From a virus: 64,000 nucleotides of DNA. The stretch lies in IMG/VR virus record IMGVR_UViG_3300035182_001904; one strand, written 5' to 3'. Positions 45,197-64,000 of the stretch are shown piece by piece. A program made the position numbers and the translations under genes. Under the pieces are notes generated by a model. The model did no database searches. It saw only the letters and a program-made list of their open reading frames with translations, and had not been told where the DNA came from. Positions within the stretch are counted from its first letter, which is position 1. Each line of letters begins with the position of its first letter.

Positions 45197-48100
45197 CTAC
45201 ACGATGATGTCGTCGTCGTCCGTTCCGCTCCCGATGATCTGCGGCTTGTCTTCGTCCACCTTGATCTCGGGATCGCCAGGGGCTGGTGCCTTAGCGTTTC
45301 CTTCGGCATAACGGGCCCGTGTCGCGTCCAGCAAGTGCTTGATCGAGAACACGGAGATCAGGTCGATGGGTTGACAGGGGCCCATCACGTCGACGAGGCG
45401 CTCGAGCACCCGCGCACGCTTCACTTCATCGTTGCCGATGTGATGCGGCGAACGCTCCGACACCTGCTTGAGGAACGTCGGCGTCTCGGTGCGGTACCGC
45501 GTCTGCGCCAAAAGCCCCTGCGAGGCCTCGACCCAGTTCACGACCAACCACTCCTGCTTGACGTCGAGGTAGACGCCCTTCTTCGTCTTGTTGATGTCGT
45601 CCAGCTTGTTCAAGTCGCCAAGCATGACGCGGATGGTCGTCATGCCGGACATCTGGTCCTGCGTTCCGACGGTTGCCGTTTGGATCGCCGAGCCCAGGAT
45701 GGTCTCGAAGATCTGCTCGTTCTCCGACGTCGTCTTGAGCCGCGCGAGTTGTTCCCGCCGGGACTCCGCGAAGTCGTACGCGAACGTCTGGTAGTTCGGG
45801 ATGGGGTTGGAACCGCCGCGCTCCTTGGCCAGTTCATCGAGCAGCTTGAGCATGGCCATCTCAGGGAACATGGCTTCACGGAAGCGCGAAGACGCATGGG
45901 CGGGCAGCTTGTTGCCTGTCACGTACTCTTGCTCGATCGCTGCCTGGTGTTGGCGCAGCCGCAGCATGTACGGAAGCAAGCCCACCACCATGTCGTGACG
46001 GGTCTTGCTGATCAGGTGGTCGCCGAACTTGCCTGCGAGCGCCAGGACGGGGTCCTTGTGGCTTGCGTCCTTGACCAGCTCGAACTGCACGAAGCGCGAC
46101 AGCGACGCGGCGTCACGCAGCGGTCGAATCGCACAGGCCACCAACGGGAAGCGTAGGTGGTAGGTCCGGCTCTCGCCGGTCGTGGTCCCGATGGACCAGT
46201 TGACGGCGGTCTCCGAGATCAAGTCACGACACAACTCGAGCACCTTGCGCACCGCGATGGACTTCGCGTCGTTGCCGCCGTAGTCCTCGAACTCCTCGAG
46301 ACACAGGGTGAGGCTCGAGTTGTTGCGTTGCTGGCGGATAGACGCGGCCGTGTAGCCCTGCATCGTGATCGCGTGCGCCACGATGTTGATGCGTGACGAG
46401 CTTCCGCCGCCTACGAAGCCCGCGGTGAACTTGCTCTTGCCGGACTCGTGTTCGGCGTTGAGGATGACCGCGGTCTGACGTGTGAAGACGTTCATCATGG
46501 CCAAGCACATCACGTAGGCCGCCAGGAACGTGCAGTCGAGTTGCTGATAGCGGAAGGCCCACCCCGTCTCGATCATGTCCTTGACCCGCACGAACAGGTC
46601 GACCAGGTCAACCGGCGTGGTCAGGTCCTTCGCGTCTACGACGGTCTCGATCCAGGCGGCTCCCGAGTTGTCGAAGATCACGCCTTCGTGACGCGGTCCG
46701 TCGAGGGGTGTCGCGGTGAAGTTCGCACCGTCGTGCGTGAGGCAGTACACGTCACGTCCGTTCACGAGGTACGAGCGCATGCGCGTCTCCGTAGACTCGA
46801 TCATGTGAATGCCCTGGCTCTTGATCGGTGCGTGGTCCATCGAAGGTAACCCCTTTGCCATCATGAGAAACGCGAAGTTCAAGTACTCACGGTACTTCTT
46901 GGACTTCATCGAGATGTTGAACTGGGACGCCTCGGGGTCGTCGCCCACGATGAACGGCGGATCTCCCACAGTGTCCTTGATGAAGTCGTAGATCGGGCCG
47001 TACTGACGCGAGACAAGCGTCTCCGCGCTGCGCTCGTCGTTCAAGACGACGGTGTCGGTTGTCCGGCTCGCCTTGTTCCAGAGTGACAAGATACGCTTAC
47101 GTCCTTCGCCGTTCTGGATGCCTACCGGATGGTAGCGGTCCAGCAATGCTGTATGCAGGCGTTTGATGAACTCTTCCTCGTTGTCGTTCTTGACCAGGAT
47201 GTCGTGTCGAAGAATGACCGCGTCTAGGTTGTGGTCTTTTGCTACCGCAACACAGAACGCATTGCAGACATGTTCGTCTTTGAGATAGAGGCCCCAGCGC
47301 TTGGCCGCTTGGCTGATGGTTGAAACGTCAGTCGTTCCGCTCTTGGCAATCTCCGCAGAGAATTGGTCGTAGCACCACACATCGGTGGACTCGTACATCT
47401 TCTCGTTGGTGATGTACCGAACCCACCGCGGATACCCGATTTCTCGGATGGCGTCGTCGGGGTCTTTGATCCAGACGTCAGGACGCGTCGGGTCACGCCA
47501 ATCGACGTACTCCTCGGGCCAGGTGAAAACGCGGAAGGCGAGGGCCTTCGTCTTCGTCTGATCCAGGAGACGTGCGACCAGCTTGTCGCCGCCGCCGTCA
47601 CGGTCAGGGACGATCCACGCACGGCTGATGCCCATCATCAGAAGGCGATCGACGCCTTGGGCACCGCTGCCGCTGAGACCGAGTGCGATGAAGTCATCCG
47701 ACTGACGCCGGATCTGTTGTGCGATCGAACAGAGCGCGTCGAACTCTCCCTCGGAGAGGTGCCCGACGAAGCCTTTGTCGGGACCGTCCATGCCGTGGTC
47801 TTCGGAGCTGAGGTACGTGCGGTAGTAGCGCAGGCCGTAGAACCCGTGGAACCCGTCCATCTCGGCTTCGTAGGAGTCCTCGACCCAGGCTTGACTGACA
47901 CAAGGCTTGGCAGGCTCGCGTAGCTTGAACCGACAGATTGACGTCGGGGTGTCATCGTACGGGAAGACAAGGTGCCCGATATACGTCTGACCCTCGGTGT
48001 ACTTGCCGAAGTAGCTGCGGAAGAACTTGTACTCCTCCGACGTCACGCCGAAGTGGTTCTCGACGTCCACGATGCGCGGGAAGATACCGATCAGTTCGCG

Positions 48101-48709
48101 TGAGCAAAGCGTCACCCAGACGCCGAACTGATCGAACGTTCCATCCGACTGGTCCTTCTCTGCAACCAGTTCGTTGGGCGCGCTCTCGCCCAGACGCCGT
48201 GCGAGTAGGTAGTCGAGCGTGGGCTTGGTCCAGTTCAGGTGATCGGTCTCGAGCGTGCCTGCGGCATACGAGCCGAGCGCCTTGAACAACAAGGTGCTGA
48301 AGAACGTCATCAGCGCGGTCTTGTTCTTCTGGTAGACCTCGTGGCTCTGAACCTTCTCGAACAGCTCCTTGGGAATCGACGCGGAGAGGCCCCAACGCTT
48401 CTTGGCGAAGACGAGTGCGTCGGAGACGGACGTGTTGTTGACCGCAGCGATGAGGTGGATCGGGTTGACGAAGTGCTTGTGGCAGCCGAAACACCGCGCG
48501 AGCCCTTTGAAGGGTGTAACGATGAACGATGCCGTCCCATCAGAATGGAACGGGCAACGGCCTTTGATGTGTGGCCCCGACGAATGAAAAGCCGCTTCGG
48601 GCTGTGCCTCCGCAAGCCAACTGAGCCAGTCGCTGTTCTGGACGTCGGTCCAGACCCGGTTGAGCCGCGTGAACGCGACCTTCGAATCACCCTTCGCTTT
48701 ACGCGCCAC
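45197..48709 (-). CDS. primase-helicase (CHC2 Zn finger, TOPRIM, P-loop)
   Basis: CPFH...CFGC; SEGEFDA...PDRDGGG; AEHESGKS and LCLEEFE. Confidence 0.85.
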   Translation of the reverse strand: MARKAKGDSKVAFTRLNRVWTDVQNSDWLSWLAEAQPEAAFHSSGPHIKGRCPFHSDGTASFIVTPFKGLARCFGCHKHFVNPIHLIAAVNNTSVSDALVFAKKRWGLSASIPKELFEKVQSHEVYQKNKTALMTFFSTLLFKALGSYAAGTLETDHLNWTKPTLDYLLARRLGESAPNELVAEKDQSDGTFDQFGVWVTLCSRELIGIFPRIVDVENHFGVTSEEYKFFRSYFGKYTEGQTYIGHLVFPYDDTPTSICRFKLREPAKPCVSQAWVEDSYEAEMDGFHGFYGLRYYRTYLSSEDHGMDGPDKGFVGHLSEGEFDALCSIAQQIRRQSDDFIALGLSGSGAQGVDRLLMMGISRAWIVPDRDGGGDKLVARLLDQTKTKALAFRVFTWPEEYVDWRDPTRPDVWIKDPDDAIREIGYPRWVRYITNEKMYESTDVWCYDQFSAEIAKSGTTDVSTISQAAKRWGLYLKDEHVCNAFCVAVAKDHNLDAVILRHDILVKNDNEEEFIKRLHTALLDRYHPVGIQNGEGRKRILSLWNKASRTTDTVVLNDERSAETLVSRQYGPIYDFIKDTVGDPPFIVGDDPEASQFNISMKSKKYREYLNFAFLMMAKGLPSMDHAPIKSQGIHMIESTETRMRSYLVNGRDVYCLTHDGANFTATPLDGPRHEGVIFDNSGAAWIETVVDAKDLTTPVDLVDLFVRVKDMIETGWAFRYQQLDCTFLAAYVMCLAMMNVFTRQTAVILNAEHESGKSKFTAGFVGGGSSSRINIVAHAITMQGYTAASIRQQRNNSSLTLCLEEFEDYGGNDAKSIAVRKVLELCRDLISETAVNWSIGTTTGESRTYHLRFPLVACAIRPLRDAASLSRFVQFELVKDASHKDPVLALAGKFGDHLISKTRHDMVVGLLPYMLRLRQHQAAIEQEYVTGNKLPAHASSRFREAMFPEMAMLKLLDELAKERGGSNPIPNYQTFAYDFAESRREQLARLKTTSENEQIFETILGSAIQTATVGTQDQMSGMTTIRVMLGDLNKLDDINKTKKGVYLDVKQEWLVVNWVEASQGLLAQTRYRTETPTFLKQVSERSPHHIGNDEVKRARVLERLVDVMGPCQPIDLISVFSIKHLLDATRARYAEGNAKAPAPGDPEIKVDEDKPQIIGSGTDDDDIIV

Positions 48710-50742: not shown

Positions 50743-50966
50743 GTCATGTCCTTTTGGAATGCGAGAAAGGGGAAGTCACTCTAGTGATTTCGATGTTTGT
50801 TTGGCAAGCATCGCGAACCGAAATTCGTCGCGCTAGGGCTGGGGTGTATAGGCGAACCCCACCCAAGCGTTTCTGGTGTACGTGTCGGGATCGACACCCA
50901 ACGGGTAGCGTCCGATCGTGGAACTATTTGATCACACGTGGCGCGCTTGGTAGGTTGTTCTTCAAT

Positions 50967-51758
50967 ATGGTGATTCCTCAGGCTCGGACCGCTTCGACGT
51001 ACTACGCGGAAGTTGCGCGGATGCCGTTGGTGGACGATCCCGCGGAAGAGCGCCGCCTGTTGCAACGCTGGCAACAGCGCAAGGACGTCAAGGCGCGCAA
51101 CGCCATCGTGCAGACGCATCTCCGGTTCGTCGTCAAGCTGGCTCACAAACGCAGCAAGGATCCCGAGGCGGTCAAGGACTTCATCGCCGCCGGGAACCTC
51201 GGGCTTCTCAAGGCCACCGACAAGTTCGACTGGGCTCGCAAGCCGTACATCCGCTTCCTGACGTACGCCGGTTGGTGGGTCTACGAAGAGATGTCGAACC
51301 AGGACTACACAACGGCGACGCTCGTGCACGTCCCCGCCCACCGCCAGAAGGCGCAGCGCCGGAACGCACGCGAGTATCGCGCGGCAGTGCAAGAGCACGG
51401 ACCGGACAACGCGGACGTGCAGGCGATGAACCCGGGATTGTCCGAGAGCATCGTCATGCCGATCGAAGCGGCGCGCTACACGCCGGACATCTCCGACACG
51501 GAGCCGACCTCCACCTATGGGTCGGACCGCTTGCGTGCGCTCGTGCGTGAGGGCATCAGCCGCCTGCCCTCACGAGAGCAGACAGTGCTCAACCTCTTCT
51601 ATGGTGTCAAAGACGACCCGCGGAACCTGGTCCAGATCGCTTCCATCATGGGCATGTGCCCCGAGCGCGTCCGTCAGATCAAGCTCAGCGGGATGCAGCT
51701 CCTGCACAACGAGCTGAAGCAGCGTGTCGGCCTGTCGACTGAAGACGCGTACCTCTAG
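50967..51758 (+). CDS. sigma70-family factor (RpoH/RpoS-like layout)
   Basis: Region 1.2 YYAEVARMPL, region 2 HLRFVV...GNLGLLKATDKFD...RFLTYAGWW and region 4 LPSREQTV...CPERVRQI. Start at ATG 50967. Confidence 0.9.
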   Translation: MVIPQARTASTYYAEVARMPLVDDPAEERRLLQRWQQRKDVKARNAIVQTHLRFVVKLAHKRSKDPEAVKDFIAAGNLGLLKATDKFDWARKPYIRFLTYAGWWVYEEMSNQDYTTATLVHVPAHRQKAQRRNAREYRAAVQEHGPDNADVQAMNPGLSESIVMPIEAARYTPDISDTEPTSTYGSDRLRALVREGISRLPSREQTVLNLFYGVKDDPRNLVQIASIMGMCPERVRQIKLSGMQLLHNELKQRVGLSTEDAYL

Positions 51759-55113: not shown

Positions 55114-55502
55114 CGCTTTCCTCCTGGGAAGTCAAGGGACTCCCCTTCCATGAGTTGACGTTCGGGTGTCGGAAACTTGCCTGGGTTGGTCGCGGCTGCT
55201 TTGGCGGAGGCCCGCAGGATTGCATCCATGTCGACAGGCGCCTGGCCTCCATCAACAACAGCGAGTGCGGGCGGTGCCGCCGCCGACTCTTGTCGCGCGT
55301 ACTCGTCGAGGGTGGTTACACCGCTCGAGGTGATCACCGGCGATGACGACGGCACATCATCGCGCGTCACCTCGACCGACACGACCGCCTTGTTCTTGGA
55401 GAACTTGATGTCGTCCTCCGAGGCTGAAATGCCTTGTTGGGCCAAGTCCTGTTTGATCAGGCGCGTGATGTCGGACGCCTCGTACGTGACTACAATCTTC
55501 AT
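55110..55502 (-). CDS. hypothetical protein
   Basis: ORF track; ATGA overlaps. Confidence 0.65.
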   Translation of the reverse strand: MKIVVTYEASDITRLIKQDLAQQGISASEDDIKFSKNKAVVSVEVTRDDVPSSSPVITSSGVTTLDEYARQESAAAPPALAVVDGGQAPVDMDAILRASAKAAATNPGKFPTPERQLMEGESLDFPGGKR

Positions 55503-57484
55503 TTGGCCCTCTCAGGTAGCATGGGCAAGGCATACGCCTTGATGACGGGGCGGTCCACCTTCTTGGGGTGGATGCACCCTAGCTGAAAGGGTTCAATCCC
55601 CTTCGCAAGACATATGATGTTTTTCGGACATAGCGCGCATTCAATCTTGTTCGTGAGCATCGAATCGACATCGATTTTGTGATCGAGCAAATGGGCTACC
55701 GCCAGCTCAAGCGTTCCCTGCCCGATCATCCTGTACACGGTAACCTTGTCGTTCTGTCCAATCCGATAGTTTCGGTCCAAGCATTGCGAGTACGAATTCA
55801 GCGAATACGGCAACGAGCTGTAGATCATGTACGTCGCCGAATTCAACGTGATGCCGAGGCCTGTGGTGACTTGGCCGATGTAGACGCGGACGGCAGGGGC
55901 GTCGTTGAACGCGTCGACGGAGGCCATCGGGTCTCGTGAACCGCCATCGACCCGTACGTACCCAATCTCTTCGGCGTTCAACCGCTCCTCGATCAGGTCC
56001 ATCTCAATGTGAAACGCGCACCAGATGATCACCTTGTGGTGCGGCGTTTCAAGAATCCCGTCGAGCAGCTCCATGATCGATTCGAGCTTGGGGTGCTCGT
56101 CAAACGTGATGGTCGTGGAGGGCCATGGCGTCGCGTCAACCAGGCACCGTGGGGTGCGTGGTTGAATCTGCCGCGCGACACAGGCGTCACGGTGTTCACA
56201 CGGCAAGCCTCCCCGGGCCGAGTCGCAGTAGAAGGGATCCTTCTCGCTCTTGATGAGGAAGCCTGACGTGATCTGCAAAAGCTTCATCAAGGCCGCCGCT
56301 CGGTGCGGCATCTCGATGGCAGAAAGTTGGTGCGGGAGAATGGGCTTCGCACCAATCTCCCCGGACCGAATCTGGATCCCTAGCTTACCCAGCACCTCGG
56401 GGTCGATGCCCATGTCGATGACGATCTTGTCGTACGCAACGGTCTGAGCGCGTGTAAGGGTATACTCTACGTCCACAAAGGAGCGTGTTGGCAGGTCCAA
56501 GCACTGCTCTTTGGTACGACGGATCGACAAGAAGGTCGTACGTGCATTGATGACGTCGAGATTCTTGTAACCAACCACGATAGGAGAGTTGGCGCCTCGC
56601 GTGACAACGAACGTTTTTTTGTACTTCCAGTACGTCTCGGGCATGAAGCAGTCGCCCAGGATTTTGTAGGGGCCGTACAGGTCGAGAGGATTCCCCTCGG
56701 TGGGGGACCCCGTCATGAGGATGCGGCGCATCGCCTTCTGTGCGATCTCATGCGTCGTCTTGGTGCGCTCGGACTGCCAGGTCTTCACGCCATGGCTTTC
56801 ATCGCAGACCAGAACGCCGTAAGGCAGCCGTTCTACGAGGAAATCCACTAAACTTCTCGCAGTGTCGTACGTCGAAAGAACCATGTCGGTGCCCTCGGCG
56901 GCAGCGCGTTCGATGATCTCGCGCTTCTGCTTGGGCGTTCCGACCAGCGCGGCCCACGTGAGCTGGCGGCCCGAGTGAAGGTCGATCTGCCGACCCCAGT
57001 TCCGCACGGTGACGCGCGGCCCGAGCACCAGGGCCGTGGCGCGGTTGCCGGTGTGGCGCAACAAACGCAGGAGATCGATCGCGATCTTCGACTTGCCGAG
57101 ACCAGGATCGTAGAACAACGCCGCCCGCATGTTGTAGAACACGTGGCAGAGTCCTTCAACCTGATGCTGGTATGGCGCCGTGACGTATTCAAATCCCGTG
57201 GGCAAGGTCAGCGCTTCCAAGCGTCGGCGCACATCCTCGAGCGCCTCGATGTGGCGTTGGGCCACGTCCGAGATCACCACGTCAACGTCGGAAGCCACTG
57301 CTTGAAGGTCCGCGATGACCTTGCTGGATGCAGGGAAGAACGCGGGGTACATCCACAAGGCCCGCGAAGCGTCCCATGTAGCGCCAAACACGCGACTGTA
57401 CGTAGCATTCTGTCCGTGAACCAGAAACACGGGCGTGCCGTTGCCCGCGCGTCCGACGCGGATCTCCATTCGGGGTCGACCCAT
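55499..57484 (-). CDS. SNF2-family helicase
   Basis: DPGLGKS, CDESH, MTGSP, GLGITLNSA and DRNYRIGQ. Confidence 0.9.
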   Translation of the reverse strand: MGRPRMEIRVGRAGNGTPVFLVHGQNATYSRVFGATWDASRALWMYPAFFPASSKVIADLQAVASDVDVVISDVAQRHIEALEDVRRRLEALTLPTGFEYVTAPYQHQVEGLCHVFYNMRAALFYDPGLGKSKIAIDLLRLLRHTGNRATALVLGPRVTVRNWGRQIDLHSGRQLTWAALVGTPKQKREIIERAAAEGTDMVLSTYDTARSLVDFLVERLPYGVLVCDESHGVKTWQSERTKTTHEIAQKAMRRILMTGSPTEGNPLDLYGPYKILGDCFMPETYWKYKKTFVVTRGANSPIVVGYKNLDVINARTTFLSIRRTKEQCLDLPTRSFVDVEYTLTRAQTVAYDKIVIDMGIDPEVLGKLGIQIRSGEIGAKPILPHQLSAIEMPHRAAALMKLLQITSGFLIKSEKDPFYCDSARGGLPCEHRDACVARQIQPRTPRCLVDATPWPSTTITFDEHPKLESIMELLDGILETPHHKVIIWCAFHIEMDLIEERLNAEEIGYVRVDGGSRDPMASVDAFNDAPAVRVYIGQVTTGLGITLNSATYMIYSSLPYSLNSYSQCLDRNYRIGQNDKVTVYRMIGQGTLELAVAHLLDHKIDVDSMLTNKIECALCPKNIICLAKGIEPFQLGCIHPKKVDRPVIKAYALPMLPERAK

Positions 57485-57527: not shown

Positions 57528-59318
57528 ATGGCCACTGATGGAATGTTCGACCCGGGTATCTCCGACCTGTCGACGCAAAACACGTCGTCGCACGGAAGTC
57601 CGCTCTTCGATTTCCTCACGGCGTTCGCGCCACGGAAGCTCAAGGACCTCTTCCGACTGTGCGAGTACCTCTACTTCAACAGCGCGCAGATCTACGCCGC
57701 GCTCCAGAAGTTCTGCACGTACCCCGTCACCGACATCATCTACGAGACGCAGAACGAGGCGCTCAAGAACTACTACGAGGACCTCCACGACAAGACGCTG
57801 AAGACGAAGCGCGTCTTGATCCGCGCGGCCGTCGACAAGTTCGTTTACGGCAACGCGTTCTTCTCGATGTACGCGCCGTTCGTGCGCTTCCTGAAGTGTC
57901 CGCGCTGCCAGTCGCTGACGAACATCCACCAGGTCACCTACAAGTTCAACCTGAAGAAGCTCGCCTTCAACTACGCATGCAAAGGCTGCAACGTGAAGGT
58001 GGACATCGGTGAGAAGGACGTCATCGACCGCAAGATCACACGCAAGGACCGCATCTCGGTGATCCGTTGGGACCCGAAGTTGATGGACATCGACTACAAC
58101 CCCATCACCGGGCACAGCGAGTACTACTACACGATCCCCAAGGAGATTAAGGAACGCTGCGCCAAGGGGAACAAGCACCTCATCGACACGATGCCGATGG
58201 AGTTTTTGAAGACGATTCGCTCGGACAAGATCTTCAAGTTCGCGGAAGGTCAAGTCTTCCACATGCGCATGGACGCGCCCGCGGGCATCGAGGCTCAATG
58301 GGGCTTCCCGCCGCTCGCATCGACGATCAAGCTGTTCTTCTACGCGGCGGTGCTGCGCAAGGCGAACGAAGCGATCGCGCTCGACTACATCGTCCCGCTG
58401 CGCATCATCTCGCCGAAGCAGTCGTCGGCGAACGCCGATCCGATGACCACCATCTCGTTGGCCAAGTGGTCCGACGAGATGAAGACCAGCGTCAAGAAGT
58501 GGCGGCGAGATCCCCTCCACATCATGTGGTCACCGATCCCCGCGGAGGTCACGCACCTTGGTGGCCAAGCCCGTGCGCTCATGACGCTCGGCGAGGTCCA
58601 GGCTGCCGAAGACAACATCATCGCTGCAATGGGCCTGCCCAAGGAGTTCATCTACGGCGGCTTCTCTGCGATGGGCTCGGGCATCCAGCTTCGCGTGCTC
58701 GAGAACCAGCTCGTTCACCAAACGGGTGACCTCAACGACCTCCTGCAGTGGGTCACAGACAAGTCGGCCAAGCAGCTGGGGCGTGGCACGGTGACGTGTT
58801 CGCTCGCACCCTTCCGCTTCATCGATGACGTTCAGCAGAAGGCGCTGCTCCTGCAGCTCAACGGCGCCGACCCTTCGACGGGCCCGTGGATCTCCAAGCG
58901 GACCATGGGCGAGGCGTTCGACATCGACCCGTCCGACGAGCGCAAGTGGCGCATGCAGGAAGCAATCGACGACGCGCGAACTGCACAGGAGCTGCAGGTC
59001 GAGATGCAGAAGCGTCAGAACAATCTGGGCTCACAGGCACGAGCCCAAGCGCAGATGGGTCAGCAGGGTCTCTCCTACGACCAGCAGGCGGTGATCGCGC
59101 AGGCAGATCAGGTGATCCAGCAGCTGATGGGCCTGGACCCCGGGAGCCGGCAATCGCAGATGCACGCGCTGCAGACCGAGGACATGGTGATGTACGCGGT
59201 CGTCAAGGAACGCATGCATGACCAGACCACTCAGCAGAACCAACAGGCGATCGCGGCAGCCCGTCAAGGCGGCGATCCTTCCGGCGGTGGCGCACCACCC
59301 GCAGCGCCAGGTATGTAA
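57528..59318 (+). CDS. putative portal protein
   Basis: About 600 aa helical protein with the portal-like sequence AALQKFCTYP...YGNAF, WGFPPL, IIAAMGLPKEFI and a Gln-rich tail; inferred without a search. Confidence 0.55.
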   Translation: MATDGMFDPGISDLSTQNTSSHGSPLFDFLTAFAPRKLKDLFRLCEYLYFNSAQIYAALQKFCTYPVTDIIYETQNEALKNYYEDLHDKTLKTKRVLIRAAVDKFVYGNAFFSMYAPFVRFLKCPRCQSLTNIHQVTYKFNLKKLAFNYACKGCNVKVDIGEKDVIDRKITRKDRISVIRWDPKLMDIDYNPITGHSEYYYTIPKEIKERCAKGNKHLIDTMPMEFLKTIRSDKIFKFAEGQVFHMRMDAPAGIEAQWGFPPLASTIKLFFYAAVLRKANEAIALDYIVPLRIISPKQSSANADPMTTISLAKWSDEMKTSVKKWRRDPLHIMWSPIPAEVTHLGGQARALMTLGEVQAAEDNIIAAMGLPKEFIYGGFSAMGSGIQLRVLENQLVHQTGDLNDLLQWVTDKSAKQLGRGTVTCSLAPFRFIDDVQQKALLLQLNGADPSTGPWISKRTMGEAFDIDPSDERKWRMQEAIDDARTAQELQVEMQKRQNNLGSQARAQAQMGQQGLSYDQQAVIAQADQVIQQLMGLDPGSRQSQMHALQTEDMVMYAVVKERMHDQTTQQNQQAIAAARQGGDPSGGGAPPAAPGM

Positions 59319-59727: not shown

Positions 59728-62700
59728 ATGCTGCCAAATCTACGACCGATACTCGAGGACGCGGCAACGCGGCGCGAGATGATCCGCAAGAAGGTCGTCG
59801 AAGGCCTCGAGCAGTCGTTCCCGCTCAAGGCCGGCAAGCACACGGTCGAGGTATCGAACGTGCGCGTCGACCCGCAGGACTACTCGTCCCGGGACCAGAA
59901 GCGTGCCGTGCTCGAAGGCAAGACCTTGTCGGAACGTGTGCGCGGTGACGTCACCGTCAAGGACGCGGCGGGCGGCGTAGTCAACCACGCCAAGGACTTC
60001 ACGCTGCTGCAACTGCCGTACTTCACGCCACGGCACACCTTCATCCTCGATGGCACGGAGTACTCCGTCTCGAACCAGCTGAGGACGAAGCCAGGCGCGT
60101 ACGTACGTCGCCGTGGCAACGACGAGCTGGAGGCGACGTTCAACCTGTCGAAGGGCGCGAACTTCCGCGTGTCGATGGAGCCCGAGAAGGGTCTCCTCTA
60201 CATGCAGCCATCGCACACGACCACGAAGATCCCGCTGCATCCAATCCTCCGCGCGCTTGGGATGCCTCACCAGGACATCGCGGCGAGCTGGGGCCCTGAG
60301 ATCGCGGGCATGAATCGCGACGCTTGGAAGAACCCGGACAAGCACGTCAGCAAGCTCTACGAGACGCTCGTGCATCCGGCCAAGCAGACCGCGACCACGA
60401 CGGAAGAGAAATCCCGCGTGCTGCGCGAGTACTTCGACCAGACCTCGATGGACCCCGAGGTCACGACCCACACGCTCGGCTACCCGTACGACAAGGCGTC
60501 GGCGTCTGCAATCCTGGCGGCGTCCAAGAAGCTGCTCGACGTACACAAGGCAGCCGCCGACGTTGACGATCGGGACTCGCTGGCGTTCAAGACGTTCCAC
60601 TCGGCGGACGACTTCATCAAGGAACGCGTGCAGCTCGAGGCTCGGGCGATGCGTGCGAAGCTTGGCTGGAAGCTCGACGCGAGCCACGGGGACCTGAAGA
60701 AGGCGTTGCCGGCAGGCCCGTTCACGCGATCGATGCACGGGCTCCTGGTGGGGTCATCGCTCTCGGCAGTCCCGATGCAGATCAACCCGATGGAGTTGCT
60801 CGACGAAGCGTCACGCGTCACGATGCTCGGCGAGGGTGCGATCGCGTCCGAGCGCGCCATCCCGCTCGAGGCTCGCGACGTCCATCCGACGCACTTCGGA
60901 ATCCTTGACCCTGCAAGGACCCCAGAGTGCTACGACGCCATGACCGAGGTCTTCACGTCACGCGGGTGGAAGCGGTGGCCGGATGTCACTGCGAACGACT
61001 GGCTCGCATGTCGTGTCGATGAACGTCTCGAATTCCACCGCGCGACCAACCTCACGGCACAGCCGTATGAGGGCCTCATGTATGGCCTAGAGACGGGCAA
61101 AATCAATTACCTGGTAACGCCCAACCACCGCGTCTTGTGTAAGCCGCTCGAAACGCGCGGACTCCAACACTGGCGCATCAACCGAGCGGACGAGGTACAC
61201 GGCAAACCGCGTACATTCGACACGGGACACCTGCCGTACGTTGGGGAGAGTGTTGATACGTTTCAGCTCCCCCGGGCCGCCGGCGGCAACGCGGTAAAGA
61301 ATGTTGGCCCGATTGCCATGACGGACTGGGCGTCCTTTATGGGATGGTATCTGTCCGAAGGGTGTTTCAACTTCACCGAAAAAACATTCACGTATCACGT
61401 CCTGATCTCACAGGACGTGAAAAAGAATCCACAAAACTGCGAGATTATCGAAGCACTGCTCCGGCGTATGCCGTTTGCATGGTCACAACGCGGGGGTGAC
61501 ACGTATGTCATCGGCGTTAAGCAGCTAGCGGCATATGTGCAGCAGTTCGGGCACGCGGGGGATAAATACATCCCGGAATACTTTTTTCAGGCGTCGTACG
61601 AAGTACGAGAGAATCTATTCGAAGCTCTCCTGTTGGGAGACGGTCGAAGGTGTAAGGTTCCGTTGCCAGGTGCAACACACGACCGAAATGTACTCTGTAC
61701 TACCAGCGCACGCTTGGCCGTCGATTTTGACCGCCTCGCGATTTCCCTGGGACGCCCAACACGCACCGCGCGCTACGTCGACAAGCGTGAAGAGCGGTAT
61801 CTGGACACGTACGAAGTACGTCCGTTGAAACAACGTTTTCGACAATCGCGGACACGTGAGGAGCAGCGGGGCTACTACACCGAGCACTATCGCGGCAACG
61901 TGTACTGCGCTGAAGTCCCCGGGGGACTGTTGTACGTGCGGCGGAACGGCAGCGTCCCGATTTGGTCGGGCAACTCGTTCAAGGTCGGCGTCGACCTTCG
62001 TGCCACGATCGGTGCGCGGCGCGACGACAAGGGCAACCTCTACGCGCCGGTCTACGACGTCGCTGCGAAGAAGTCGACGTACCTCAAGGCCGGTGACATG
62101 GCGAAGTCGATCATCGCGTTCCCTGGTGAACACCTGGGACCGGGGAAGATCGTCGATGCGATGGCGCATGGCGTCGTATCGCGCGTGTCGTCGGATCGCG
62201 TGACCCACCAACTGGAGCATGTCGCAGACCAGTATGGGCCCACGTCGAACCTCCTGCCGCTGCTCTACGGCATCCAGGCGAACCGCGTGCTCATGGCGAG
62301 CAAGCACCAGGGCCAAGCACTGCCGTTGACGCATCGTGAGGCGCCGCTCGTCCAGGTTGCATCGTGGAAGCCAGGGACGTCGGTCGAACGGGAGATGGTC
62401 AAGCTGATCGTCCCGACCGCACGACAGGCCGGCACGATCACGAAGATCGATGACGACTGGATCCACATCGAGCCGGACGCGAAGACGGCCGCGCTCACGA
62501 CGAAGCTCCACTACGACACCAACCTTCCGCTCGCCGCCAAGACGATGCTGCACAACACGCTGACCGTGAAGGTCGGCGACCGTGTCGAGAAGGACCAGCT
62601 CCTCGCTGACTCGAACTTCACCAAGGACGGCACGCTCGCGTTGGGCACGAACCTGCGGGTGGCATACATGCCGTACCGCGGCCTCAACACCAACGACGGC

Positions 62701-64000
62701 ATCGTCGTCTCGCAGGGCGCAGCGGACAAGCTGACGAGCGAACACATGTACCAGCACGCGCTTTCGCGTGAAGGGGACGTGCAGCTCGGACGTGAGAAGC
62801 ACCGGACCTACTTCGGCAGCCGCTACACCAAGGACCAGTACGACAAGCTCGACGAAGACGGCGTTGTCAAGCCGGGGGTCACTCTTCACAAGGGCGACCT
62901 GATCGCTGCGGGCATCCGCGAGAACAAGGTGACGGGTGACGCACTCCTGCTGGGTAAGCTGTCCAAGTCGCTGGTCAAGCCCTACGAAGAAGTGGTCGAG
63001 ACTTGGACGCACGATCGACCCGGCATTGTCGTAGACGTGGCGAAGACCGCCCGACAGGCAGCTGCGTCGATCCGCACCCAGGAGACACTGCAGATCGGCG
63101 ACAAGCTGTGCAACCGCTTTGGCAACAAAGGCGTGATCGCGAAGATCATCCCTGACCACCAGATGATCCAGGATGCGCAGGGGCGCCCTGTCGATCTTCT
63201 CTTCACGTCGGCGGGTATCGTCTCGCGCATCAACCCAGCGCAGGTCATCGAGACGGTGCTTGGAAAGGTTGCCGAAAAGACGGGTAAGCCGATCGTCATC
63301 CCGCAATACATGCCAGGCCGTGACAACGTCGCCTTCGCAAAGAAGTTGCTCGAGGAACACGGTCTCTCGGACAAAGAGACGGTCCTTGACCCTATCACGG
63401 GCAAGAAGGTTCCCGACGTGTTGGTCGGCAAGAGCTACATCCTGAAGCTCTTCAAGACCACAGATTCCAACTGGGCAGCGCACGGCGCCGAGAAGTACGA
63501 CTACAACCAACAACCGGCGCGTGGTGGTGACGAAGGTGCCAAGGGCATCGGCAAGATGGAATTCGATGGACTCGTCGCGCACAACGCACGCAACGTGCTG
63601 CGTGAAGCGGCGTCCATCAAGAGCCAGCGCAACGACGAGTTCTGGCGCGCGATCCAACTCGGGCTGCCGACGCCTTCGCCCAAGACGCCATTCGCCTACG
63701 ACAAGCTGCAGAGCATGCTCACGGGCGCCGGCGTCAAGGTGACGAAGACCGGCTCACGCTTGGCGCTTGGTCCGCTCACCGACGCGGACGTCAAGTCGAT
63801 GTCCTCAGGAGCGCTCAAGGACCCGAGCAAGTTGATCCGCGCGAAGGACCTACGCCCCGAGACCGATGGCCTCTTCGACCCAGGGATCACCGGCGGCATG
63901 TCGGGCACGAAGTGGTCGCACGTCGACCTGCACGAGCCGATCGTCAACCCCGTGTTTGAGGAACCCGTGCGACGCCTTCTCGGACTGACACAGAAGGAGT
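59728..64000 (+). CDS. phage multi-subunit RNA polymerase beta subunit (with intein) fused to beta-prime N-terminus; 3'-truncated
   Basis: Hand-translated without a stop to the window end. Beta motifs: TFILDGTEY..NQL..PG, RDVHPTHFG..P..TPE, ANR.LM, ALGTNLRVAYMPY.G.NTND, GDKL.NR.GNKG and SRINP. Beta-prime motifs follow: RPETDGLF and SHVDL.EP. Confidence 0.92.
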   Translation, partial: MLPNLRPILEDAATRREMIRKKVVEGLEQSFPLKAGKHTVEVSNVRVDPQDYSSRDQKRAVLEGKTLSERVRGDVTVKDAAGGVVNHAKDFTLLQLPYFTPRHTFILDGTEYSVSNQLRTKPGAYVRRRGNDELEATFNLSKGANFRVSMEPEKGLLYMQPSHTTTKIPLHPILRALGMPHQDIAASWGPEIAGMNRDAWKNPDKHVSKLYETLVHPAKQTATTTEEKSRVLREYFDQTSMDPEVTTHTLGYPYDKASASAILAASKKLLDVHKAAADVDDRDSLAFKTFHSADDFIKERVQLEARAMRAKLGWKLDASHGDLKKALPAGPFTRSMHGLLVGSSLSAVPMQINPMELLDEASRVTMLGEGAIASERAIPLEARDVHPTHFGILDPARTPECYDAMTEVFTSRGWKRWPDVTANDWLACRVDERLEFHRATNLTAQPYEGLMYGLETGKINYLVTPNHRVLCKPLETRGLQHWRINRADEVHGKPRTFDTGHLPYVGESVDTFQLPRAAGGNAVKNVGPIAMTDWASFMGWYLSEGCFNFTEKTFTYHVLISQDVKKNPQNCEIIEALLRRMPFAWSQRGGDTYVIGVKQLAAYVQQFGHAGDKYIPEYFFQASYEVRENLFEALLLGDGRRCKVPLPGATHDRNVLCTTSARLAVDFDRLAISLGRPTRTARYVDKREERYLDTYEVRPLKQRFRQSRTREEQRGYYTEHYRGNVYCAEVPGGLLYVRRNGSVPIWSGNSFKVGVDLRATIGARRDDKGNLYAPVYDVAAKKSTYLKAGDMAKSIIAFPGEHLGPGKIVDAMAHGVVSRVSSDRVTHQLEHVADQYGPTSNLLPLLYGIQANRVLMASKHQGQALPLTHREAPLVQVASWKPGTSVEREMVKLIVPTARQAGTITKIDDDWIHIEPDAKTAALTTKLHYDTNLPLAAKTMLHNTLTVKVGDRVEKDQLLADSNFTKDGTLALGTNLRVAYMPYRGLNTNDGIVVSQGAADKLTSEHMYQHALSREGDVQLGREKHRTYFGSRYTKDQYDKLDEDGVVKPGVTLHKGDLIAAGIRENKVTGDALLLGKLSKSLVKPYEEVVETWTHDRPGIVVDVAKTARQAAASIRTQETLQIGDKLCNRFGNKGVIAKIIPDHQMIQDAQGRPVDLLFTSAGIVSRINPAQVIETVLGKVAEKTGKPIVIPQYMPGRDNVAFAKKLLEEHGLSDKETVLDPITGKKVPDVLVGKSYILKLFKTTDSNWAAHGAEKYDYNQQPARGGDEGAKGIGKMEFDGLVAHNARNVLREAASIKSQRNDEFWRAIQLGLPTPSPKTPFAYDKLQSMLTGAGVKVTKTGSRLALGPLTDADVKSMSSGALKDPSKLIRAKDLRPETDGLFDPGITGGMSGTKWSHVDLHEPIVNPVFEEPVRRLLGLTQKE
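60928..61974 (+). mobile_element. 349-aa intein with LAGLIDADG endonuclease in RNAP beta
   Basis: Begins CYDAMTEV, block B VTPNHRV, GWYLSEG and LLLGDG, ends VYC...WSGN with +1 Ser. Confidence 0.92.

Follow-up and report, generated by a model that had tools for sequence, protein, structure and literature searches.

The stretch analysed here (the window) comprises 64,000 nucleotides from the IMG/VR virus record IMGVR_UViG_3300035182_001904, and carries an open reading frame (ORF) in which the beta subunit of a bacterial-type RNA polymerase (RNAP) continues in frame into the N-terminal half of beta-prime (beta-prime-N), the latter having lost its N-terminal zinc-binding domain (ZBD). The window corresponds to bases 10464-74463 of a 137.5-kb linear phage record, estimated to be 74% complete; the G+C content is about 61% throughout. 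The frame opening at position 59728 runs for 1424 residues with zero stops through 63999, and in the full record it forms a single ORF of 1802 amino acids (aa; L002:1192-6600) that would end at window coordinate 65136. Residues ~1-1300 of this ORF harbor the Pfam beta domains Rpb2_6 (PF00562, E=1.3e-45) and Rpb2_3 (PF04565, E=5e-7), and its C-terminal 479 aa harbor the beta-prime domains Rpb1_2 (PF00623, E=5.7e-22) and Rpb1_1 (PF04997, E=1.8e-9, the match of 37.8 bits lying slightly under the 39.7-bit cut-off); both sets occur in collinear order. The bacterial rpoB-rpoC reference used for alignment was CAKLQF020000005.1 (L005), a mislabelled entry filed in INPHARED as 'Acinetobacter phage MD-2021a', which is a bacterial chromosomal contig with secE-nusG-rplKAJL-rpoBC. 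Against its RpoB, the beta part is matched by BLASTP in three collinear pieces covering residues 85-1356 (of 1362). The beta-prime-N part matches beta-prime chains of the PDB (phmmer, E=1e-47) and contains the catalytic Mg-binding motif NADYDGD at ORF residue 1707, the stop following about 90 residues later. The closest bacterial identity to the beta and beta-prime parts is only 26-29%.

Across the junction, the translation reads PFAYDKLQSMLTGAGVKV-TKTGS-RLALGPLTDADVKSMSSGALKDP...RPETDGLFDPGITGGMSGTKWSHVDLHEP (nt 63688-63940), exactly as the initial annotation of this DNA gave it. The beta-side alignment to RpoB finishes at ...LTGAGVKV, and the part after the junction aligns to residues 17-552 of bacterial RpoC in one collinear BLASTP high-scoring segment pair (E=6e-50) that begins at RLALGPLTD. 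Beta-prime-N extends past the window edge and comprises the lid, the clamp helices and the rudder region before it reaches NADYDGD; these three regions all align to bacterial beta-prime. Structure prediction, which had been proposed as one way of checking the fusion, was carried out with AlphaFold2 (AF2) on ORF residues 1100-1802 with 56 homologues (predicted local distance difference test, pLDDT, 90; predicted template modelling score, pTM, 0.80). In the resulting model the junction is a confident beta-hairpin, with strands 237-242 and 245-250 flanking model residues 239/240 (pLDDT 89-96), where the final strand of beta pairs with the opening strand of beta-prime. Model residues 241-703 superpose on bacterial beta-prime with Z about 22 and a root-mean-square deviation of 2.6-3.9 Å over 418-456 residues (Foldseek, VIA-align), the superposition beginning two residues after the junction, at Thermus residue 3 or E. 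coli residue 16, and ending at E. coli residue 571. Pfam, BLASTP and AF2 agree on the in-frame fusion of beta to the beta-prime N-terminus that the initial annotation had claimed. Its question of whether the fusion extends to the whole of beta-prime is answered by the downstream sequence: the N-terminal half is included, but the ORF ends at residue 1802 and the C-terminal half (beta-prime-C) is separate.

The BLASTP alignment to bacterial RpoC is interrupted by a 32-residue gap that falls exactly on the CxC...CxxC ZBD, and by another one, about 53 residues long, at beta-prime ~112-165. About 36 residues of the bacterial ZBD correspond to about four (MSGT) in the phage chain, which bears out the deletion of the four-Cys domain noted from the sequence, and the loop occupying the former ZBD site is modelled with a pLDDT of about 94. 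Among relatives, the 125-aa junction segment is Cys-free in 138 of the 143 clade sequences and contains one Cys in the five others, the length of the replacing loop is constant, and none of 142 homologues has the ZBD. The four-Cys N-terminal ZBD expected of the beta-prime subunit of a multisubunit RNAP is therefore absent from this ORF, a domain that has been described as common to all multisubunit RNAPs (Lane & Darst 2010, as cited in PMC7618050).

How widely is this arrangement shared? When the 301 residues surrounding the junction were used as a query, 815 proteins matched; the 120 top clusters among them are 65-98% identical over 97-100% of this stretch, and most are about 1450 aa long. 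The junction is collinear in all of the 121 close sequences (the window's own and the 120 cluster representatives), with no Cys there in 119. An exhaustive beta-prime-N search yielded 1416 proteins at E≤1e-30, and among the best 150 representatives (38-75% identity), 139 have the beta C-terminus and the beta-prime N-terminus in one chain. The other 11 are short pieces, those looked up sitting on contigs of 1.4-3.5 kb; six representatives without an upstream beta, considered as candidate unfused relatives, were rejected as fragments of this kind. For one such representative, a 47.5-kb contig (L013) bears a member of its cluster whose beta is frameshifted and whose junction is still fused. This frameshift, be it a sequencing error or real, lies in the C-terminal part of beta (L013:6700-7100) and leads to beta (855 aa) and a 534-aa 'beta-prime' being called as two genes. 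The same junction and the same loop are found in isolated phages, namely Salmonella phage Arash and Vibrio phage D181. Because junction and loop are kept in 120 clusters and in 139 of the 150 representatives, the junction and its Cys-free loop are neither chance nor a sequencing error. The homologue survey also settles the two outcomes that the initial annotation had named as fatal to the fusion: no stop is hidden at the junction, the relatives sharing it in frame, and separate genes with an intact ZBD occur in distant phage lineages only (23-27% identity), not in true relatives.

The remainder of beta-prime is encoded about 2.5 kb downstream by a separate gene (L002:9115-10896), of 593 aa from the likely start MATTLGQ, as called in a close relative (L012). 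Beta-prime-C contains Rpb1_5 (PF04998), the bridge helix and the trigger loop, and retains the second Zn site (C814/C888/C895/C898 in E. coli), seen as DCGT...MTCEA...GVCQRCQG when aligned to bacterial RpoC. After beta-prime-N, the gene order is a LAGLIDADG-like homing-endonuclease ORF, two small ORFs, and beta-prime-C; a search for a group I intron between the two halves returned no Rfam family at gathering score in L002. In 42 of the 150 representatives, beta, beta-prime-N and beta-prime-C form a single chain of about 2000-2100 aa. In the single-chain homologue P0174, the counterparts of the beta-prime-N end and of the beta-prime-C start lie directly next to each other in continuous sequence. 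In a quick maximum likelihood tree of beta-prime-N, for which one bacterial sequence served as the root, the two-chain forms fall into one clade (72 rows; SH-like approximate likelihood ratio test, SH-aLRT, 98) and the single-chain forms are basal to it, which suggests that an ancestor with beta and beta-prime in a single chain was split once to give the two-chain form. Taken together, the window ORF is very probably the large chain of a two-chain, bacterial-type RNAP encoded by the phage.

The beta part is itself interrupted by an intein inserted at the conserved site ...DPARTPE/SFKVG..., which displays C401 (Cys1), a TPNH block B, SGN749/S750 at its end, and two LAGLIDADG-like motifs. The intein-less homologue P0003 is 95-97% identical over the flanking parts and 98% over the junction region. 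The penultimate residue of the intein is Gly, not His; Cys1, block B, the terminal Asn followed by Ser, and a precise absence from a homologue are all observed. Since the close relative L012 has neither the intein nor the endonuclease gene, both are taken to be mobile insertions, and its gap between beta-prime-N and beta-prime-C is about 0.9 kb, against about 2.5 kb here. In many relatives, the beta-prime-N match breaks off directly behind NADxDGD, in proteins that are hundreds of residues longer (P0136, P0137, P0144, P0146 and others; P0006, P0043, P0082, P0086), which suggests a second intein hotspot. Some relatives of about 1560-1590 aa have a GNAT acetyltransferase domain (PF00583/PF13508) within the polymerase chain. 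In the Vibrio phages (D181, L004:5457-10971), beta is further divided by a homing-endonuclease gene, giving an N-part of 514 aa and a beta-C-beta-prime-N chain of 1006 aa, and three RNAP genes in all.

Table 1. Features of the RNA polymerase locus and its neighbourhood (window coordinates, except where L002 is given)
Feature	Position	Strand or placement	Basis
Beta-(intein)-beta-prime-N ORF, window part	59728..64000	+	Translation, Pfam; runs past the window edge
Beta C-terminal helix and last strand (PFAYDKLQSMLTGAGVKV)	63688..63741	+	Aligns to bacterial RpoB up to residue 1356/1362
Junction, 5-residue turn TKTGS from last beta strand to first beta-prime strand	63742..63756	+	AF2 model, collinearity in relatives
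Start of beta-prime N-terminal half (RLALGPLTD...)	63757..64000	+	BLASTP, phmmer, VIA-align
Site of missing ZBD, loop I-TGG-MSGT-KW	63886..63915	+	Replaces about 36 residues bearing CxC...CxxC
LAGLIDADG intein in beta, 349 aa, ORF residues 401-749	60928..61974	+	Clean insertion relative to intein-less P0003
Free-standing homing-endonuclease-like ORF	L002:6607-7155	directly after beta-prime-N stop	LAGLIDADG_3 and Hom_end matches, weak, below Pfam cut-offs
Sigma70-family gene, 334 aa, regions 2 and 4	50754..51758	+	PF04542, PF04545 above cut-offs; phrog_351, E=2e-31
SNF2-family helicase	55499..57484	-	PF00176, PF00271; same place beside RNAP in L012
Portal protein gene, two genes upstream of RNAP ORF	57528..59318	+	29% identity, E=4e-94, to Arash gp204

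Beyond the polymerase itself, the window encodes a sigma70-family protein, with homologues in Arash and Vibrio D181 and a syntenic counterpart in L012, which is the probable specificity factor of this polymerase. Its N-terminal extension is about 115 residues long, and a further weak region-4-like match lies upstream of the window (G000:C1:8430-8543). The order of genes from portal to RNAP is the same in Arash, and the RNAP gene sits in the structural module. In jumbo phages, RNAPs are accompanied by a Swi2/Snf2 helicase (PMC7824862), of which the SNF2-family helicase here is reminiscent. An ORF of 1170 aa on the minus strand (45197-48709) combines a CHC2 zinc finger of the DnaG type with a Toprim domain and is probably a primase or primase-helicase. 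Each genome has one RNAP set, with one Rpb2_6 match and one Rpb1_2 locus. Profiles for alpha (PF01000, PF01193) and omega (PF01192) found neither subunit in this record, nor in the whole Arash and Vibrio D181 genomes, the positive controls being recovered in 14 of 14 genomes.

The initial annotation had further linked the loss of the ZBD to '-10-only promoters and few terminators'. Consensus scans compared with shuffled sequences gave 3 promoter-like sites for 4.1 expected and 15 terminator-like sites for 14.5 expected, neither class being enriched or depleted, and a genome-wide search for enriched 10-mers and upstream 7-mers, based on crude gene calls, revealed no convincing promoter motif, the only weak signal being a TTGAC-containing k-mer in 5 upstream regions. 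As these scans and k-mer searches gave no distinctive signal, the proposed link is left unsupported, and the sigma factor does keep region 4. The changes that the initial annotation expected in sigma4/-35 engagement, termination and antitermination would be reasonable in the light of what is known of bacterial RNAP.

Protein-level data come from phage Arash, whose gp206 (1525 aa) has the same junction as the window ORF. In virion mass spectrometry, gp206 gave the most spectra of any protein, exceeding those of the major capsid protein, with 100% coverage and 128 unique peptides, and beta-prime-C (gp216) and a sigma factor (gp10) were also detected in virions (PMC10585845). The same paper labels gp206 just 'subunit beta', and its authors caution that virion preparations may contain carried-over proteins of high abundance (PMC10585845).

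How would such an enzyme be assembled and used? Following splicing of the intein, a complete beta would lead, by way of the tight hairpin turn of 5 residues, into beta-prime-N, which brings in the clamp core, the lid, the clamp helices, the rudder region and the Mg-binding NADYDGD loop. Beta-prime-C, as a second chain, contributes the second Zn site together with the bridge helix and the trigger loop. In bacteria, the alpha dimer serves as the platform for core assembly; as neither an alpha nor an omega gene is present in the phage genomes, this role is probably taken over by the covalent link between beta and beta-prime. The phage sigma70-family factor would probably dock on the retained clamp helices and on the flap, giving promoter specificity, and the enzyme would probably be packaged in virions, injected, and able to start transcription independently of the host, packaging being considered probable because of the homology to Arash and the position beside the portal gene. 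In bacteria, the ZBD is in contact with spacer DNA, with the path by which RNA exits and with several host factors. As its loss removes this surface, the phage enzyme would plausibly escape host termination and antitermination control. We therefore infer an alpha-less core held by a covalent tether, directed by the phage sigma factor and probably packaged in the virion.

Several other explanations have to be weighed against this one. The fusion could be an artefact, if an error hid a stop or a frameshift between separate rpoB-like and rpoC-like genes, a concern raised by the origin of the record as one metagenomic contig and by the frameshift inside beta in the relative L013. This view is effectively refuted by the recurrence of the same in-frame junction in the 120 independent clusters and the 139 distant representatives, which come from many assemblies, by its presence in the isolated phages Arash and Vibrio D181, by the complete peptide coverage of Arash gp206, and by the confident folding of the junction as a hairpin. 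Could the gene instead be a non-functional, decaying remnant of a captured bacterial rpoBC operon? An intein, an adjoining homing-endonuclease gene and the loss of a domain otherwise regarded as universal might give that impression, but the NADYDGD motif and the second Zn site are retained, conservation is strong over hundreds of clusters, the closest bacterial sequences are distant and the context is one of phage structural genes, and the Arash orthologue is abundant as a protein, all of which leaves this possibility with almost no credit.

Phage sigmas redirecting host RNAP are well known, as with T4 gp55 and SPO1 gp28, and this precedent, together with the fact that packaging evidence comes from Arash only, whose authors mention carry-over, would fit an intracellular enzyme of middle or late infection that is not packaged in the window phage, with the phage sigma serving the host RNAP. 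Such a scheme appears rather unlikely, given that the RNAP gene lies two genes after the portal gene in both phages, that gp206 tops the virion spectra above the major capsid protein, and that there is a single RNAP set per genome. The function of the zinc domain might also be supplied in trans by a separate small zinc-ribbon protein docking at the vacated site, in keeping with the common splitting of RNAP modules into separate polypeptides by phages (PMC7824862). However, the replacing loop is fixed in length, conserved and confidently modelled, as expected for a settled deletion, and the non-virion RNAP (nvRNAP) of phage AR9 works without a ZBD (PMC7618050), making a trans-acting substitute very improbable.

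The proposal of a tethered, alpha-less, sigma-directed and packaged enzyme has its own weak points. Virion packaging is extrapolated from a relative with about 36% identity, and efficient splicing of an intein ending in Gly-Asn is presumed. The phage sigma could instead redirect the host polymerase, and a manual alignment is the sole ground for regarding the flap-tip helix as retained. That alpha and omega are absent is a result of Pfam profiles, applied here to a record that is 74% complete, and a very divergent or a host-supplied alpha is possible. With a single distant outgroup and a quick tree, the direction of the change, split or fusion, is not secure. Finally, the lack of a distinctive promoter or terminator pattern means that there is no independent sign of altered signals.

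What does this enzyme represent? It is a real, conserved variant of the phage-encoded bacterial-type RNAP, hundreds of related phage sequences sharing the fusion and the loss of the ZBD, and it is apparently undescribed: in the literature searched, with subscription journals outside its coverage, there was no description of a fused, ZBD-less clade. In databases, the fusion has been hidden behind the name 'RNA polymerase subunit beta' under which its members are entered, a label that needs correction. A broader proposal can be put forward tentatively, at somewhat less than even chances, namely that a large unrecognised clade of tailed phages (about 185-197 kb; Arash, Vibrio phages) encodes a self-sufficient, sigma70-directed RNAP with no need for alpha or omega, in which beta and beta-prime are joined (ancestrally in one chain of about 2050 aa) and the ZBD has been discarded, freeing the injected enzyme from Rho, antiterminators and the coupled ribosome. 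If this is true, the enzyme would be a natural minimal bacterial-type RNAP, and it does look like a natural minimal form. A polymerase that has no ZBD, no alpha or omega genes, and catalytic subunits tethered to each other amounts to a natural experiment on the need for the ZBD and for alpha; consisting of one or two genes plus sigma, it is also small enough to be a candidate for work in structural and synthetic biology, for which phage Arash provides a cultivable model.

Among known systems, Helicobacteraceae and Wolbachia have beta and beta-prime fused (Zakharova et al. 1999; Lane & Darst 2010, as cited in PMC7483510). The phage ORF resembles them in that the beta C-terminus is joined in frame to the beta-prime N-terminus, exploiting the closeness of these termini in the clamp. 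It differs in that the bacterial enzymes are cellular, with a full-length beta-prime, alpha2 and omega, whereas the phage ORF fuses the N-half only, via a linker of about 5 residues. The fused enzymes of Helicobacteraceae and Wolbachia keep the ZBD, in contrast to the phage chain, whose genome has no alpha or omega gene, the use of host alpha being possible. A chain of whole beta and whole beta-prime, of the Helicobacter/Wolbachia type, is thus not what the window ORF encodes, but it is what those 42 single-chain relatives have.

Another point of comparison is provided by phages phiKZ and AR9, which also encode a beta/beta-prime-type RNAP without alpha, with beta-prime split after the catalytic domain and a virion-packaged form (PMC7598289, PMC7824862, PMC7618050). 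The AR9 nvRNAP likewise lacks the N-terminal ZBD, which phiKZ keeps (PMC7618050). However, in phiKZ and AR9, beta is split too, nothing is fused, virion and non-virion sets coexist and there is no sigma (PMC7824862), whereas the window phage has a fused chain and one set. The likeness of their proteins to bacterial subunits is also much weaker, while the rudder and clamp-helix regions of the window protein can still be aligned to bacterial beta-prime; and, in contrast to these phages, which have no sigma-family factor and in which a phage-specific subunit recognises promoters, the window phage has a sigma70-family gene with regions 2 and 4, whose product may serve this polymerase.

The mReC phages (Weinheimer & Aylward 2020, PMC7481178) are likewise tailed phages with alignable, bacterial-like beta and beta-prime. 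Each of the two subunits has its own gene in them, with lengths of about 1000-1560 aa for beta and about 900-1370 aa for beta-prime (PMC7481178, Supplementary Data 2), and the paper does not mention fusion, zinc or sigma (PMC7481178). Identity of the present clade with the published mReC lineage was considered and ruled out, given the separate beta and beta-prime genes of other lengths in the supplementary table. In Rhizobium phage TM30 and Vibrio phage Va2, beta-prime is unfused, keeps CxC...CxxC, and is 23-27% identical to the window protein.

Finally, the separation of a catalytic N-terminal half of beta-prime from its C-terminal half recalls rpoC1-rpoC2 of cyanobacteria and plastids, and in Synechococcus RpoC1 (617 residues) the AF2 model finds its match at residues 7-559. 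The break in the phage protein, at about E. coli residue 571, nevertheless lies some 55 residues upstream of the RpoC1 end. Cyanobacterial RpoC1 retains the ZBD, and RpoC1 of cyanobacteria and plastids is not fused to beta, whereas beta-prime-N of the phage is.

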